DNA from: Patescibacteria group bacterium
GTDB lineage: Bacteria; Patescibacteriota; Minisyncoccia; Phycocordibacterales; Phycocordibacteraceae
Assembly (NCBI GenBank): GCA_018970425.1
Contig: JAGWWK010000003.1
Span: 10,687 to 74,686, forward strand
Direction: 5' to 3'
DNA length: 64,000 nucleotides
Position 1 is the stretch's first letter. Each line of letters opens with the position of its first letter. Position numbers and translations under genes: made by a program. A model generated the notes under the pieces. That model did not search any database. It saw nothing but the letters and a program-made list of their open reading frames with translations, and was not told where the DNA came from. Below, in pieces: positions 4,079 to 45,152 of the stretch.

Positions 4079-6018
4079 AATATCTCGGTGCGACACTCAT
4101 CTTTTTCGCGCTTTTGTTGCCGTTTCAGGCAGCTCACGCTGAGCTGCCTATAACTGAGGCAGGTAACGGAAGACCCGCAACAGCAGATATCGCTCCATCT
4201 GCCCTCACTAACGAAAATGTGAGTGCGATTGCTGATAAGGTCTCCCGAGACATGAAAGCTCTCATCGATAAGGGTGAGCAACTTGGCTGCGGTCAAGCAT
4301 CTGGCGAGCATGGAGGGTCTCTCGCCGCATCACTAGAGCAACTGATGCGTGGACTCATTGACGATGTTAAGGGCTCCCTCATGGGGGCCGCTCGTGGGCA
4401 AGTGCGAGACTTTTTAAATCGAATCTCTGCTAATGCCGGCCCGCTCGCACCAGTAGTGCAGCCTCTCGTAAACTTCATCGGCGCAAAAGCGGACGCGCTT
4501 ATCAGACAAGTGGGGGAGAAGATTTTTAGCTTTATTGATCCTTCAGGCGCGGCTACTACTGCACTGAGCGGTGTTGCGCAGGCAGTGGGTCTAAATTTGG
4601 GGAACATTGGCATCGGGGCGGGCCTCCTTGGAGATCTGCCTGTCGCCGGTATTGGTGCGAGCGTGCCGGTTACTGAGACCGGCGCGCAACTCTCTCTCAC
4701 ACGCTCAATTGAAGGTAGTACTTTGCGTACTGAGCCGTTGATCAAGTACATGAGAGACGCGAGCGGTACTCAGCTGTACGTCGCCTGTGTCGTAAACCCT
4801 GCAATATCGAAATCTAAGAATGGGATCGTGGCTAACCAGGTGCGCGGCATGGTACAGACAGCTGCTGAAAAGCAGGTAACAAATGTCTTTGAGGCGTCTC
4901 AGCGGAGCGGTGACTTCTATGCGCGGAAGTCAATCGAGGCTTCAGCGCAGGGTATGTGCTCATCACACCGACAAGAGGTTATGGAAATGGTTATTAATCA
5001 GTTTAGCGGTGCGCGCACAACCGCACAGTGCTCAGAGGAAAATGAGCAAAAGCCTGGAGCAGACTTTGACTTTCAGAAGCAAGTAGCGTCCCTAGCTAAC
5101 CCAGGAAACGTGCCGGCAATGCAATTCTTCAATGCTATTGCAAAGGCAACGCAGGAGGGGCTTGCGGCTACAGCTGTCACCGTCCTCGAATATCATAAGA
5201 ATGAGGGATTTTCTAATACATATGAATGCACTGAAGCCGAGAGAGACCTCAAACCAGGGGAAGTGTGTATCAATGGCCAGGTAGTGCTGCACGGAAAGAT
5301 GGTAGCCGGAGCTTTGTCGAGCGCTCTTAATGCCCCGATGCAGCAGCTCATTCAAGCCGATGAGATTGGTGAACTGATAGATGCGATGTCTGCGGGCCTT
5401 ATGCAGGTCGCATTTCAGAATGTACGAGGAATTCTCGGACTTGTAGAGAAGAGTGGCTCGCGCGGCTCATACCTCGACGAGATGGTTGCACAAAACTATG
5501 ACGAGTCTGCTATTTCACCCCAGCGCGTCCTTACGGGGGACATAGCAGCCGCTCTCGATACTGAAACTCAGTATGGGCAAGCACTCGACATTATTCTTGC
5601 AGATCTTGCCACTGCAAAAAAGAACTATGAATCTGCGGCGGCATGTTACGAACCGATCCGCTCACAAGGCAAAGGGGACATTACCCCACAGATTGCTCGC
5701 GATGCAGTTGCACTTGCAACCACGACTGTCGGCATTGCCATCAATCCGCAGGTGTCACTCCTCCTAACTGAAAAAGCATCGAGCGACAGCGCGCTTGGCG
5801 AGCTGGTCGAGTTGGTCAATGCGGCAGAAACTGCACTCTCGCAAAAAGATATAGTCGAGGTTTCTTCCCGCTTTAGCGCACTCAAAGCATCAGGGCGCAT
5901 GCATACAACAACTGATCTGCAGGCGCTCATTAATAGTATGGAGTTTGGCGCCGCATCGATTGAGCGCATGCTTCGCGATGCCACTATTCTTCTAGCAGCG
6001 TGTACTAAAGCAGTATGA
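4074..6018 (+). CDS. large secreted hypothetical protein (about 648 aa), T4SS-like cluster component
   Basis: Start is taken at ATG 4074 (ATGA overlap with the upstream stop), giving the signal peptide 'MKYLGATLIFFALLLPFQAAHA'. The longer ORF call from 3955 overlaps the previous gene. Confidence 0.5.
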
Positions 6019-33702: not shown

Positions 33703-33841
33703 TTGGTACCCGCGACTCTCAGCTCACCCACGTTCACCTCGGTCGAGGCCCGCTCGTCGCGGTTTAGCGGAGGGTAAAACATCGCTGCAGTCATCATAAA
33801 AGCAGAAAACCTGCCGGCAGGGCAGGTATTTCAGTCTTTTG

Positions 33842-33913
33842 TGCTCCCGGCAGGAATCGAACCTACATTACAAGCTCCGCAAGCTTGCGTCCTATCCATT
33901 GAACGACGGGAGC
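33842..33913 (-). tRNA. tRNA-Arg (anticodon GCG, tentative)
   Basis: Minus-strand sequence 'GCTCCCGTCGTTCAATGGATAGGACGCAAGCTTGCGGAGCTTGTAATGTAGGTTCGATTCCTGCCGGGAGCA'. Anticodon loop TTGCGGA. Confidence 0.7.
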
Positions 33914-34080
33914 GAACGAGGAGCGCCGCGAACACTTGTTTTCATGGCGTCCGAGTGATGGTCCCGAAAGCCTGAGCTTACGGGAGCGAACGAGGAGCGC
34001 CGCGAACACTTGTTTTCATGGCGTCCGAGTGATGGTCCCGAAAGCCTGAGCTTACGGGAGCGAACGAGGAGCGCCGCGAA
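33907..34080. repeat. 74-bp tandem direct repeat, 2.35 copies, beginning inside the first 7 nt of tRNA-Arg
   Basis: Unit 'cgggagcgaacgaggagcgccgcgaacacttgttttcatggcgtccgagtgatggtcccgaaagcctgagctta' occurs at 33907, 33981 and 34055 (the last copy is partial, 26 nt). The copies are identical. Confidence 0.85.
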
Positions 34081-34167
34081 AATGTAAGTCCTGGCGTCAG
34101 CGTGTTGCCCCCGAACGCTGCGCGATAGGGAGCAATGCGCCTACTGTAGCACAAAGTCGTGATTTTT

Positions 34168-42067: not shown

Positions 42068-42544
42068 ATGGGAGTAGTCATGGATGTCAAAAAGCTCACG
42101 CCAGTGAAAACCACTGACCGCAAGGCATTGGGGATACGTGCGGGTGATACCGTACGCGTGCACCAGAAAATTGTCGAAAAGGGTAAAACCCGTATTCAGA
42201 TCTACGAAGGGCTGGTTATCGCAACGAAGCATGGCACCGAAATCGGAGCAACATTTACTGTACGAGCAGTTATGTCTCAGATTGGAGTAGAGAAGACATT
42301 CCCGCTCTACTCACCGCTCATTGATAAGATTGAAATCATTCGACGCTCTAAAGTTCGCCGAGCAAAGCTCTACTACATTCGTGATCGCGCGTCCCGCGAG
42401 ATCCGCCGTTCGCTACGTAATATGATCAGCGTTAATCTTTCAGCAGGCGGTAAAGAAGAGGAGGTGATTGCGACCGAGGTTGAAGATACAACTAACGAAG
42501 CGCCGATTGAGGCAAACCCAGCGGCCGAGCCAAAAGCAGAGTAA
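42068..42544 (+). CDS. rplS: 50S ribosomal protein L19 with a C-terminal extension
   Basis: '[41 protein letters not shown]' is the L19 core; about 40 aa of acidic tail follows. Confidence 0.85.
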
Positions 42545-42551
42545 CCAACGT

Positions 42552-42578
42552 ACCGCCCGAAAGGGCGGTTTTTTTGCG
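42552..42578. terminator. rho-independent terminator after rplS
   Basis: 'accgcccgaaagggcggtttttttg'. Confidence 0.7.
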
Positions 42579-42666
42579 CGACGCCGCCTCGGGCCAGCCC
42601 TCCGGTTTTAAAGTCCATGGGGCAGGTACTAAAAAATCCGGCGTGTGCCGGATTCTTTACTACCTG

Positions 42667-42740
42667 CGCGAGAGACGGGACTTGAACCCGCAACCTCCGC
42701 CGTGACAGGGCGGCGCTCTAACCAGTTGAGCTACCCCCGC
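42667..42740 (-). tRNA. tRNA-Asp (anticodon GTC)
   Basis: Minus-strand sequence 'GCGGGGGTAGCTCAACTGGTTAGAGCGCCGCCCTGTCACGGCGGAGGTTGCGGGTTCAAGTCCCGTCTCTCGCG'. Anticodon loop CTGTCAC. Confidence 0.8.
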
Positions 42741-42891
42741 AAGTGAGGAAGAAAGTAGCCGCGTGCGGATACTTTTTCCGAACGTCGCGGGAGGCAAGTA
42801 TTGCTTACCCCCGCAAGTGAGGAAGAAAGTAGCCGCGTGCGGATACTTTTTCCGAACGTCGCGGGAGGCAAGTATTGCTTACCCCCGCAAG
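42732..42891. repeat. 74-bp tandem direct repeat, 2.16 copies, beginning inside the first 9 nt of tRNA-Asp
   Basis: Unit 'tacccccgcaagtgaggaagaaagtagccgcgtgcggatactttttccgaacgtcgcgggaggcaagtattgct' occurs at 42732 and 42806, with a partial copy (12 nt) at 42880. Confidence 0.85.
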
Positions 42892-42946
42892 CCCGTTTAA
42901 TGTATCGCAAAATCATGCTTTTTACAACGCGCGCTATACTTGAGGT

Positions 42947-43276
42947 ATGGACGAATGTATTTTTTGCAAGATAGCTGCGGGAGACATTCCGGCTGAAAAA
43001 GTATTCGAAGACGAGCGTTTTGTCGCATTTCTGGACATACATCCCGTATCCCCGCGGCATACACTACTTATTCCGAAGCAGCATTTTCGTTGGTTTTATG
43101 AAATTCCTGACGATCTCTCCGATGGTCTTTTCCGTACGGCAAAAAAGGTCGCGCGCACCCTCAAGGAAGAGACCGGATCGGACTATATTAAGTTAGGTAT
43201 TGTGGGCACTGACATTCCGCACGTGCACGTGCACCTCATTCCGCGGCGAATTGCGGATGGCCCTGTGCGCCCCTAG
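42947..43276 (+). CDS. HIT-family nucleotide hydrolase/transferase
   Basis: 'CIFCKI' N-terminus and histidine triad 'HVHVHLIPR'. Confidence 0.85.
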   Translation: MDECIFCKIAAGDIPAEKVFEDERFVAFLDIHPVSPRHTLLIPKQHFRWFYEIPDDLSDGLFRTAKKVARTLKEETGSDYIKLGIVGTDIPHVHVHLIPRRIADGPVRP

Positions 43277-44040
43277 CGCGCGTCTGCGTCGTCGAAGCGC
43301 GAAACATCGGCCACGATTGCTTTGTGGTCGCTCACGCCGTCTACCAGATGGACAGTATGTGCACGGTAGCTTGGGGTTGTGAAAAGGTAGTCGACCATAT
43401 TTGTTTCAAGTTCGGAGGCGTATCGCGTGCCTTTGAGCCGATGTCTCGCCACATCAATACTCCCGTCGTATTCAGTTGGGATGCAGTCTGTGTACCCTTC
43501 GGCAAGCAGGGGATACAGCTCGTTTTTACCGCGCGGAATATTAAAGTCCCCAATCAAAACATGTTCTCCGAGCGTATGAAGGATTGCTTTGAGGGCGTGA
43601 AGATCCTGCCGTTGCCTGTCATTTGCCATCCCATCTGGTGTCCAAGTGAAATGTGTTGTCACTATGCGTAGATTCACGGGCTCAGTAAGGTGCACCGAAA
43701 TGATTCCGTACCGGTAGGTCGCGTAGATAGAATCGACTGATGAGTCGTCAAATCCTGGCAACGGCTCCGGGTACTCTCTCAGGTACTGGGTCGTTACTTG
43801 CGAGAAGGGTGAGCGCGCGAGTACGCCAATACCGAAAACCCCGCTCTCCGCAGAAGTGAATCGTTGTCGTTTGGTGGTGGGTAGAAAAGCTCGATGCGGA
43901 TAGTCGGGGAATAGGCTGAGGTCCGATTGAAATACTTCTTGCAAGCAGAGCGCTGCCGGCGCTTCATTAACGACGAAAGGGAGGACGGTATCGAGGTGTC
44001 GGTCTCCCTCAATGTTTACTGATACGATACGCATCTGTCT
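43273..44040 (-). CDS. endonuclease/exonuclease/phosphatase (EEP) family protein
   Basis: 'MRIVSVNIEGDRHLDTV...LCLQEV' is the EEP N-terminal motif, with a C-terminal 'SDHKAIVADV'. Start trimmed to avoid a 5' overlap with the divergent gene. Confidence 0.6.
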   Translation of the reverse strand, partial: RQMRIVSVNIEGDRHLDTVLPFVVNEAPAALCLQEVFQSDLSLFPDYPHRAFLPTTKRQRFTSAESGVFGIGVLARSPFSQVTTQYLREYPEPLPGFDDSSVDSIYATYRYGIISVHLTEPVNLRIVTTHFTWTPDGMANDRQRQDLHALKAILHTLGEHVLIGDFNIPRGKNELYPLLAEGYTDCIPTEYDGSIDVARHRLKGTRYASELETNMVDYLFTTPSYRAHTVHLVDGVSDHKAIVADVSRFDDADAR

Positions 44041-44057
44041 CATACTACCAGCATAAT

Positions 44058-45152
44058 GTGCGATACACTTCCCGTATGCGCGTCGCACGCCTCACGACCT
44101 TTGTTGAGAGGTACCAGCACCAGCTCTCTGTCGGCTCGTTTTTTGTCGGCTTTGCACTAGACACGGTGCTGTTAAAGCGCATCGATCTTTGGGCATCTAA
44201 CGCGCTCCTCATAACGTACCTTGCCATTGCGCTCGCAGTGTTACTCATCCTGCATAGTGCTGCGGCAAGACCACCGCGCTCCGTAGTGCGCGCGCGCATT
44301 CTCGAGTGGCTGCCATTTGTCGCGCAGTTTTCATTCGGAGGAATGTTTTCAGGTTTCCTCATTTTCTATTCGCAGGCGGGTACGTTGAGCGGTTCTTGGC
44401 CTTTTCTTGCTCTTATTGTTGTGCTTATTGTTTGCAATGAGTTCATGCGTTCCTACCAATCGCGATTAACGTATCAAGCAGCGCTCCTATTTTTCTGTCT
44501 CTACTCCTTCTCAATTTATGCGGTTCCCATATTTCTCGGTTCTATGAGCGATCGGATATTTGAGCTTTCAGGAGTTGTTGCTCTTGTGTGCTTTTTTGGT
44601 GTCTACCTGCTACTGCGACTCATCGATGTACGGCGCGTCCGCGCGTCCGCACCAAGCATTGCTGCGTCAGTCCTTGGTATCTACGCGGTCATTACAACGC
44701 TCTATCACACGAACTTTCTGCCGCCGATTCCGCTTTCTCTCAAAGATGTCGGCGTGTACCACGACCTTGAGCGGCGCGGTGGTGTCTATAGTGCATCTGC
44801 CGAGCCTCAGTCCGCGTGGGAGCAGATTACTGGTTTTACGCTGAGTGTAGTACCTGGTGCAGAGCTCTACGCGTACAGCTCGGTATTTGCTCCGACAACA
44901 CTAACCACGAGTATTGTGCATCGGTGGCAGCGCTATGAGGACGATACTTGGGTTACGGTCGCGTCTATTCCTTTCAGCATCATAGGAGGCCGCGATGGTG
45001 GATACCGTGGGTACAGTGCGGTTCCTATTCTTGCTCCCGGGCTCTGGCGAGTATCAGTCGAGACGGTTCGCGGCCAGCGCATCGGTAGTCAGTCATTCAC
45101 TGTTGAGTTTGTGTCCTCGCCAGTAGCTACGGTATCTCGTATACTGCGCTAA
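44058..45152 (+). CDS. hypothetical polytopic membrane protein with a C-terminal extracytoplasmic domain
   Basis: About six hydrophobic helices in the first 200 aa, then a soluble domain. Confidence 0.4.
   Translation: MRYTSRMRVARLTTFVERYQHQLSVGSFFVGFALDTVLLKRIDLWASNALLITYLAIALAVLLILHSAAARPPRSVVRARILEWLPFVAQFSFGGMFSGFLIFYSQAGTLSGSWPFLALIVVLIVCNEFMRSYQSRLTYQAALLFFCLYSFSIYAVPIFLGSMSDRIFELSGVVALVCFFGVYLLLRLIDVRRVRASAPSIAASVLGIYAVITTLYHTNFLPPIPLSLKDVGVYHDLERRGGVYSASAEPQSAWEQITGFTLSVVPGAELYAYSSVFAPTTLTTSIVHRWQRYEDDTWVTVASIPFSIIGGRDGGYRGYSAVPILAPGLWRVSVETVRGQRIGSQSFTVEFVSSPVATVSRILR

Follow-up and report, generated by a model that had tools for sequence, protein, structure and literature searches.

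The tRNA-Asp locus and its tandem array

The stretch of DNA analysed here, referred to as the window, comprises 64 kb of contig JAGWWK010000003.1 from a Patescibacteria group bacterium and carries six tRNA genes according to ARAGORN. One of these, tRNA-Asp(GTC), is preceded by a perfect tandem array of a 74-bp unit which overlaps the 5' end of the gene and which is the subject of this work. The gene has rplS (42068-42544, plus strand, terminator at 42552-42569) on one side and a divergent HIT-family gene (42947-43276) on the other. Positions are those of the window, and minus-strand features are read in the tRNA sense unless stated otherwise. The unit read in this sense is called a module; R1 is a covariance model of the module family, R2 is a covariance model built from 17 Asp modules of other genomes with neither window sequences nor Arg modules in its training, and loci sampled from other genomes bear L-numbers. 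The parts of the locus, as obtained with ARAGORN, Tandem Repeats Finder (TRF), RNAfold, the covariance models and inspection, are the following:

42666..42740, minus strand: tRNA-Asp(GTC) gene (ARAGORN; Rfam RF00005, 67.6 bits), of which nt 1-9 (42732-42740) belong to the third copy of the direct repeat.
42741..42814, minus strand: predicted leader module, proximal copy, 74 nt, abutting nt 1 of the tRNA with a gap of 0 (R1 66.2 bits; R2 58.9 bits, E=1.4e-11).
42743..42783, minus strand: predicted hairpin 2 of the proximal module (42817-42857 in the distal one), from RNAfold; the 5' arm is rich in A and the 3' arm in T, and the tail TCACTT comes next.
42787..42814, minus strand: predicted hairpin 1 of the proximal module (42861-42888 in the distal one), from the RNAfold minimum free energy structure, with covariation in helices 1 and 2.
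42815..42888, minus strand: predicted leader module, distal copy, 100% identical to the proximal one (TRF; R1 and R2 matches).
42880..42891, minus strand: first copy of the 12-nt direct repeat CTTGCGGGGGTA, read from the sequence, the others being at 42806-42817 and 42732-42743; this junction is the same as in the module-less locus L082.
42899..42927, minus strand: putative sigma-70-type promoter TTGTAA-N17-TACATT, read from the sequence, with a -10 box ending 10 nt upstream of the first pseudo-5' end.

TRF reports 42732-42891 as a repeat of period 74 with 2.2 copies, 100% matches and 0% indels, and in the sequence itself 2.16 perfect copies are found, the units starting at 42732 and 42806 and being followed by 12 nt of a further, incomplete copy (42880-42891); the original prediction, which had placed 74-bp units and a partial copy at these positions, was therefore correct in its coordinates and description. 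Head-to-tail identity without indels is what a tandem duplication or a variable-number tandem repeat (VNTR) displays. On the plus strand the unit starts with tacccccgc, the reverse complement of nt 1-9 of tRNA-Asp (GCGGGGGTA). This had also been predicted and is supported by the ARAGORN and Rfam placement of the gene; the stretch common to the units is, however, 12 nt long rather than 9, being made of the leader CTT followed by tRNA-Asp nt 1-9. Read in the tRNA sense, the locus thus consists of the promoter region, CTTGCGGGGGTA, 62 nt, CTTGCGGGGGTA, the identical 62 nt, and a last CTTGCGGGGGTA which continues into the tRNA, and the direct repeats at 42732, 42806 and 42880 are boundary repeats capable of mediating misalignment, as in VNTRs. 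Coding potential of the unit was considered and rejected, the 74-nt period not being a multiple of 3 and only short overlapping open reading frames being present.

The tRNA-Asp and tRNA-Arg arrays are made of one family of modules

A second perfect array of period 74 is located at 33906-34080 (2.4 copies, 100% in TRF), where it overlaps nt 1-8 of tRNA-Arg(GCG) (33841-33913) and displays a 27-nt direct repeat at its unit boundaries. Its features are the following:

33914..34061, minus strand: two identical 74-nt modules (TRF; R2 27.7 bits, E=1.5e-4 for each unit; fold z=-2.8).
34062-34140, minus strand: possible third, degenerate Arg module starting GCTCCCT, with its last 19 nt as in the perfect units (weak R1 match, 18.2 bits, E=0.17).
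34143-34148, minus strand: -10 box TACAGT of the putative promoter; TACAGT and the GCTCCCT start are conserved in L090.

The two repeats had been described in the original prediction as having the same architecture and unrelated sequences; the former statement is supported and the latter is not borne out. When the 64-kb window was scanned with R2, exactly four matches were significant, two of 58.9 bits (E=1.4e-11) at the Asp units and two of 27.7 bits (E=1.5e-4) at the Arg units. Since R2 detects the units of both loci, the two repeats of the window constitute one family. The motifs GTAAGC..GCTT, CTCGGA and CCTCGTT are also common to both units, and RNAfold predicts for the Arg module (z=-2.8) the same two hairpins as for the Asp module, its acceptor-mimic stem carrying the Arg sequence (GCTCCCG / CGGGAC). 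The agreement in unit length and copy number that had been pointed out between the two repeats is real (period 74 in both; 2.2 versus 2.4 copies in TRF) and takes another meaning, the shared period reflecting the length of the module rather than a ruler-like process, and copy numbers of 2.2-2.4 reflecting an integral number of modules plus the tRNA's own 5' segment.

The repeat is supported by independent assemblies

Perfect identity and the same period at two loci of one assembly look suspicious, and one of the arrays found in other genomes (L054) also sits at a contig end, as could be expected if the repeat had been falsely expanded during assembly or amplification. At the read level, this was checked with the Logan k=31 assemblies of runs SRR32006835 and SRR31802043. 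In both runs, the contigs carrying the HIT gene start exactly 30 nt (k-1) within the Asp repeat. The Logan contig carrying the gene upstream of tRNA-Arg stops exactly 30 nt inside the Arg repeat. A contig break at k-1 corresponds to a branch of the de Bruijn graph, that is a 30-mer with two neighbours, and consequently the unit-to-unit junction must exist in the reads. Contigs approaching from the rplS (L19)/RluD side stop inside tRNA-Asp and are uninformative on the repeat. Such k-1 ends, seen at the two loci in Logan assemblies made independently from several runs, together with the diverged arrays of same architecture carried by other species, make an artefact hardly credible; expansion by assembly, which the original prediction had named among the things capable of overturning it, is not borne out. 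A perfect periodicity over 160 nt also excludes chance. The Asp repeat is therefore confirmed as real, and its copy number in the population may be 2, more, or mixed.

Copy number at orthologous loci

The comparison set consisted of 56 loci from species-representative genomes sharing the core of the window tRNA-Asp, mostly from Paceibacteria-type Patescibacteria, and the two-hairpin module of about 74 nt present in the window is designated type I. In L024 and L033, the RluD-L19-tRNAAsp-HIT arrangement of the window is found (L19 85% and 83% identical) with one module each, and L048 (4025-4723) also has one module, in a promoter-module-tRNA-Asp cassette located beside L19 (rplS) in the orientation opposite to that of the window, L024 and L033. 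The nearest relative found, L082 (HIT 81% identical, same downstream genes), has no Asp module and reads TACATTggacgggctt|GCGGGGGTAGCTCAACTGG (also given as TACATTggacgggctt|GCGGGGGTAGCTCAAC), an uninterrupted promoter-leader-tRNA whose junction is identical to the promoter-to-first-repeat junction of the window. The Asp locus thus forms a series of 0 (L082), 1 (L024, L033) and 2 (window) modules, which are copy-number differences of the VNTR kind, and is copy-number variable rather than spurious. Absence of any repeat from related genomes, which had been held to count against the repeat, applies only in part, to L082, the others carrying one copy. Homologues of the HIT protein in P0004, P0014 and P0024 lie in another gene context (RecJ-HIT-PGK) and are uninformative on the Asp locus.

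A 12-nt direct repeat flanking the insert, together with an empty site in L082, is the target-site pattern of a miniature inverted-repeat transposable element (MITE), and a precise deletion between the repeats gives the same pattern; the L082 site is either the product of such a deletion or an unoccupied insertion site. At the Arg locus, the nearest relative, L090, is a contig of the sample that also gave L082 and has a neighbouring protein of 80% identity; like the other relatives sampled, it is without the 74-nt module, and it displays only a 34-nt leader which starts with GCTCCCT and holds a small hairpin. The modules are consequently patchy and dispensable, the nearest relatives lacking them at both the Asp and Arg loci and none being found in the Adlerbacteria loci.

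Confinement of the modules to tRNA 5' ends

In 481 kb of related loci and window, containing 147 tRNAs, all four tandem repeats with a period of 62-77 bp end at tRNA nt 8-10. Two of them lie outside the window, a perfect one in L054 (62 bp x 2.2) and one in L050 (77 bp x 2.2), the latter being only 79% identical and therefore old. Exact copies of tRNA nt 1-9 located 59-175 nt upstream were found in 16 cases, compared with 0 in the downstream and reverse-strand controls. The recurrent process at tRNA 5' boundaries that had been proposed from the two window repeats is thus supported in its association with tRNA 5' ends and not in its premise of unrelated sequences, since one module family is involved. 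Scanning of 467 kb with R1 gave 42 matches with E<=1, of which 32 on the same strand were checked, the rest overlapping these modules on the opposite strand. Apart from a weak match (E=0.22), every one of the 32 stops either 0-4 nt short of a tRNA 5' end or where the next module starts. No free-standing copy was found among these same-strand matches in 467 kb, so that the varied intergenic contexts of repetitive extragenic palindromic (REP) elements are not observed.

In Paceibacteria-type Patescibacteria, the family precedes Asp, Arg, Met and Thr tRNAs, with short forms at Gly. R2 recovers Thr and Met modules outside its training (L017 56.7 bits; L068 51.7 bits; L018, L013 and L050 27-30 bits), and older, diverged arrays of two or three modules are present in L050 (79% identity), L013, L032 and L068. 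A degenerate Asp-module pattern was found at 20 loci of the JGI metagenomes, with true modules in 5 of them (L066, L068, L070, L071, L075) and unrelated palindromes in the others, and the exact window module had no match in these metagenomes. The L066 metagenome contig (3146-3218) carries, upstream of a tRNA-Gly(GCC), two short modules of about 37 nt made of hairpin 1 only (5' strand, small hairpin and complementary 7-mer). The four other tRNAs of the window have ordinary -10 boxes right beside them and no module. The module family is, with high confidence, real, tRNA-anchored, dispersed and dispensable.

As judged by sequence comparison, similarity between modules does not follow host relatedness. 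The best match to the window Arg module, at 69% overall and 77% in the last 45 nt, is the Asp module of L024, yet both hairpin-1 strands are of Arg type. For the window Asp module, the best match is that of L048 (78%), a more distant relative, and the inner hairpin of the L050 Met module is identical to that of one L050 Asp module. Since these similarities cross tRNA types and host relatedness, the backbones seem to move or exchange between tRNA loci, with the stem tracking the host tRNA. The same comparisons bear on the possibility that the modules are decayed upstream copies of the tRNA, produced by tandem duplication of the tRNA and its trailer followed by loss of the body (about nt 10-65), which would leave the acceptor stem, a D-arm-like hairpin and a degenerate terminator. 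The tRNA-like size and the start at tRNA nt 1-9 agree with such an origin, the inner hairpin AGCTC-TAC-GAGCT of L014 resembles a D-arm, and in the window, L013 and L046 hairpin 2 is similar to the actual terminator found downstream. However, the Arg inner hairpin (AAGCTCAGGCTT) differs from the D-arm of tRNA-Arg (GTTC...GGAC), the 3' half of the Arg module has its best match in another genome's Asp module, the Met and Asp modules of L050 have the same inner hairpin, and the Rfam tRNA model gives the modules no score. An identical internal deletion would furthermore be needed independently in five tRNA families, and this origin is considered improbable.

The module is a conserved two-hairpin structure

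Across the family, type-I modules are about 71-83 nt long and have a common plan. They start with tRNA nt 1-7 followed by TA, a short hairpin, usually AAGC...GCTT, and a 7-mer complementary to nt 1-7, continue with a linker near GCGYTCGG and a second hairpin whose 5' arm is rich in purines and whose 3' arm is rich in pyrimidines, and finish with a CCTCRCTT tail placed directly against tRNA nt 1. In the predicted fold of the window Asp module, GCGGGGG, which copies the 5' acceptor strand of the tRNA, and CTCCCGC are paired in an 11-bp stem with one bulge, so that hairpin 1 is, in this model, an acceptor-stem look-alike. The whole module folds at -31.4 kcal/mol (RNAfold, z=-4.9) with both predicted hairpins formed, compared with z=-3.1 for the antisense strand.

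When 20 modules were aligned on the proposed structure, 83.2% of the cells were paired, compared with about 50-53% with slid partners, and changes on both sides were observed in 21 of the 23 pairs. The covariation score was 0.362, as against <=0.212 in slid controls and 0.159 in shuffles, and 0 of 500 shuffles reached the observed value; the structure was drawn from the same sequences on which it was tested, and the contrast is therefore somewhat inflated. In helices 1 and 2, 88.5% and 95.3% of the cells were paired, and in helix 4 all pairs (9/9) had changed on both sides. A conserved secondary structure with compensatory changes, such as characterises a structured leader RNA motif, is thus present. 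No Rfam family matches the modules at gathering thresholds, nor at E<=10 beyond noise, and the tRNA model scores the real tRNA only. No prior description of the family was found in the literature searched, the coverage of which was incomplete.

These structural features would also suit a cis-acting pre-tRNA leader RNA maintained by selection, in which hairpin 1, as a mimic of the acceptor stem or minihelix, would be recognised by or compete for RNase P or another factor reading acceptor stems, or would stabilise the precursor or time its processing, copy number tuning the effect. The strong covariation of both hairpins and the difference between sense and antisense folds argue for it, as do single-stranded motifs kept over five tRNA types (the GYTCGG linker, the CCTCRCTT tail and a U at -1 before most pseudo-5' ends). 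Modules with the CCTCRCTT tail start with the host tRNA 5' strand, and the hairpin-1 stem matches the host tRNA in every tRNA family seen. Diverged two-module arrays have moreover been kept in three species, and the module common to the window and L048 (78% identity) is far better conserved than the tRNA trailer. On the other hand, neither locus of the nearest relative has the module, many related lineages carrying the same tRNA are without it too, and its copy number is 0, 1, 2 or 3. A role of hairpin 1 as an aminoacylation mimic is in addition unlikely, its discriminator-equivalent base varying (G, T or C) with no CCA after it. A selected leader RNA is accordingly viewed as rather unlikely, though with more in its favour than an origin from decayed tRNAs.

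Putative promoter and predicted leader

From where putative promoters are and are not seen, we infer that the array is a transcribed 5' leader. The position of the putative promoter is conserved, with TTGATA-N17-TACATT in L033 and, directly before the tRNA, TTGAAA-N17-TACATT in L082. In other lineages, acGACA-N17-TAGGAT precedes the first module by 10-25 nt or, in module-less loci (L031, L023, L056, L057), the tRNA by 11-25 nt. A consensus promoter scan found no promoter within the units, and no conserved promoter was seen inside the modules.

This absence is pertinent to the idea that the array is a tandem duplication of the promoter, each unit bringing its own promoter and first transcribed bases and being selected for higher tRNA expression. 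The unit does cover the region immediately 5' of the tRNA, and a TAnnnT-like hexamer (TACTTT, TAGATT, TCATTT) occurs in some modules 11 nt before the next 5' end, the spacing of the native TAGGAT in the module-less L031. Nevertheless, the hexamer is missing from many modules, including those of L024, L033, L044 and the window Arg unit, the scan leaves the units without a promoter, and the conserved promoter upstream of the whole array is the one kept in the empty site, which makes promoter duplication very improbable. Hairpin 2 was also considered as a classical intrinsic terminator or attenuator, and this was rejected, as in L024, L033 and the window Arg unit it is a GC-rich hairpin without a U tract.

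Origin and nature of the module family

The best overall explanation, held with about as much belief as reserve, is that two identical structured non-coding modules of about 74 nt lie between the tRNA-Asp promoter and the tRNA. Within it, a recent origin of the array by duplication of a family module that already existed is very probable, and that the family itself is a selfish or near-neutral dispersed element is a possibility given slightly less than an even chance. Changes in module number would arise when the 12-nt repeats or whole modules mispair by strand slippage or recombine unequally, and the same process would have yielded a perfect doublet at tRNA-Asp and, independently, at tRNA-Arg. 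The array would be transcribed from the upstream promoter as a long 5' leader, which RNase P would remove at the true tRNA 5' end, and hairpin 1 would hold the decoy 5' strand from pairing with the 3' acceptor strand of the tRNA. Neutralisation of the decoy strand by hairpin 1 and removal of the leader by RNase P would account for the tolerance of the element by its host. We lean, with moderate to low confidence, towards a dispensable REP/MITE-like element which uses tRNA 5' ends as safe sites, and not towards an essential regulator.

Several points weigh against this explanation. No transposase, RAYT or other mobilising gene is linked to the modules, the window proteins not having been screened for transposases. 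Type-I modules are without terminal inverted repeats, their hairpins being internal and the ends of the 62-nt insert (AGCAATAC... / ...CTTCCTCA) not being inverted on inspection. A target-site duplication accounts for the copied 5' strand and not for the complementary 7-mer which matches each host tRNA. The covariation and the diverged two-module arrays kept in L013, L032 and L068 are explained at least equally well by purifying selection on a functional RNA, and the absence in L082 may mean that the module was never gained rather than precisely lost. Transcription, promoter and RNase P processing are all deduced from sequence, and the putative Asp promoter matches the consensus at 8 of 12 positions, which is below the threshold of the consensus scan. 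Finally, G-U and A-C counts are 26 versus 28 overall and 11 versus 5 in hairpin 1, and do not separate the strands or an RNA from a DNA carrier.

The 7-mer suggests another form of mobility, that of a guided miniature element in which this internal sequence would act as a programmable guide to insertion at nt 9/10 of the matching tRNA gene. It would explain how both hairpin-1 strands are swapped to the host sequence, as in the Asp-type backbone found at tRNA-Arg, and would also explain array growth, each insertion regenerating its own target; such a guided element is nonetheless doubtful.

By itself, the Asp repeat is an ordinary duplication of the slippage type. What it exposes is a widespread, tRNA-sized, two-hairpin family, absent from Rfam 15 and from the literature searched, which occupies the predicted leaders of several tRNA genes in ultra-small Patescibacteria genomes and which comes and goes between close relatives. 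If it acts as a functional leader, it would represent a new bacterial way of controlling or processing pre-tRNAs by means of an acceptor-stem look-alike. If it is selfish, it would be a bacterial counterpart of tRNA-targeting mobile elements, sparing the tRNA by regenerating its 5' end. In practice, the modules break short-read assemblies at tRNA loci and can be mistaken for assembly errors or for tRNA fragments in annotation.

Comparison with known systems

The nearest documented case is the tyrT-tyrV locus of E. coli MG1655, of which the Asp array is the mirror image, the E. coli repeat being on the 3' side. According to TRF and the annotation, this array has a period of 178, 3.1 copies and 95% identity and extends over the last 19 nt of tyrV, and RttR and tpr lie within it. 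In both systems, the array starts inside a tRNA gene, a terminal segment of the tRNA (here nt 1-9) is included in every unit, and the array forms part of the tRNA transcription unit, as predicted in the case of Asp. They differ in that both the array and the tRNA segment it repeats are on the 3' side at tyrT-tyrV and on the 5' side at Asp, and in that the E. coli unit is longer, has no sequence similarity to the module and concerns a single locus rather than a family over many tRNAs.

REP elements, bacterial interspersed mosaic elements (BIMEs) and MITEs, such as REPINs and Correia elements, are short, non-coding, hairpin-forming, multi-copy sequences which have short direct repeats at their flanks and whose presence differs between close relatives. 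The modules are likewise small, hairpin-forming, flanked by direct repeats and variable in presence. However, type-I modules occur only at tRNA nt 9/10 and in the sense orientation, are without terminal inverted repeats, and possess a 7-mer complementary to the tRNA 5' strand which varies with the host tRNA. REP elements consist of an imperfect palindrome after a conserved GTAG-type tetranucleotide, a feature taken here as a lead only. The window type-I modules read GTA|AGC..., with no clean fit to REP, and a distinct element of L054 and L059, called type II and described below, reads ...GTAG|GGCCGAC..GTCGGCC.

Tandem units of tens of bp with a variable copy number are also found in the mycobacterial interspersed repetitive units (MIRUs), which are VNTR-type repeats in the intergenic parts of transcription units and vary between strains. 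MIRUs, however, are not tied to tRNA 5' ends and contain no copied part of the adjacent gene, whereas the modules are so tied and copy part of the adjacent tRNA. With tRNA minihelices and tRNA-like RNAs, which are substrates of RNase P, hairpin 1 as modelled has in common a 7-bp copy of the acceptor stem stacked on a 4-6-bp helix and a U(-1) before it. It differs from them by the lack of a T-loop, a conserved discriminator and CCA, and the Rfam models of tRNA and tRNA-like RNAs do not match the modules. Among eukaryotes with compact genomes, Ty1/Ty3 of yeast and the Dictyostelium elements TRE5-A and DGLT-A are mobile elements which target tRNA genes (PMC6101501, PMC7459421). Where genes are dense, the region just 5' of a tRNA gene is a safe place to land, and this safe-site logic is the only point in common with the modules. 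The eukaryotic elements are autonomous retrotransposons directed by RNA polymerase III factors, whereas the element here is of about 62 nt, bacterial, located inside a predicted leader and carries a copy of the first 9 nt of the tRNA.

Other elements and repeats at tRNA loci

The type-II element is located at the same position as the type-I modules and looks REP-like. It is composed of tRNA nt 1-10 (ending with GTAG), a near-invariant 39-nt double palindrome (GGCCGAC..GTCGGCC + TCCCGAC..GTCGGGA) and then host nt 11-16, and is near-identical at three tRNAs of two genomes, namely Asp in L054 (6063-6197) and Thr and Met in L059 (about 2111-2170 and about 4815-4890). In L054 it forms a perfect doublet (62 bp x 2.2) which runs to the contig end. 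No type-II element was found in viral contigs.

A different conserved leader, unrelated to type I, is present about 60-90 nt upstream of tRNA-Asp in L009, L010, L038 and L061; it reads cgcTATATTc...cGTTCGAcccGCGGGTGacacgcg and comprises a T-arm-like and an acceptor-like stretch. Two copies of a direct repeat of about 60 nt, at a distance of about 110 nt from each other, lie around 190 nt upstream of tRNA-Asp in L031 and include the 3' acceptor end of the preceding tRNA-Met (gccgccagcaca...gcaggccggagcgcgacgg), a 3'-anchored arrangement which recalls that of E. coli tyrT. Away from tRNAs, L034 (3310-4023) harbours a long tandem repeat of 126 bp x 5.1 or 252 bp x 2.8, with 73-77% identity.

Adjoining the HIT gene of the window, and syntenic in L082, is a gene of the Exo_endo_phos family (EEP-fold nuclease/phosphatase; 43273-44088). 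Endonucleases of the EEP fold drive some retroelement insertions, and this gene is probably a housekeeping one. On the 3' side of tRNA-Asp, a perfect inverted copy of 18-19 nt of the tRNA 3' end (GTTCAAGTCCCGTCTCTCG) is found 49-50 nt downstream, bracketing the terminator, in L013 (5867-5885/5935-5953) and L014 (6991-7008/7059-7076). Its counterpart in the window (42613-42642/42647-42676) covers 30 nt with 80% complementarity, and a GGGACTTGAA(A/G)GCCGGA-like motif recurs 3' of tRNA-Asp in several other loci.

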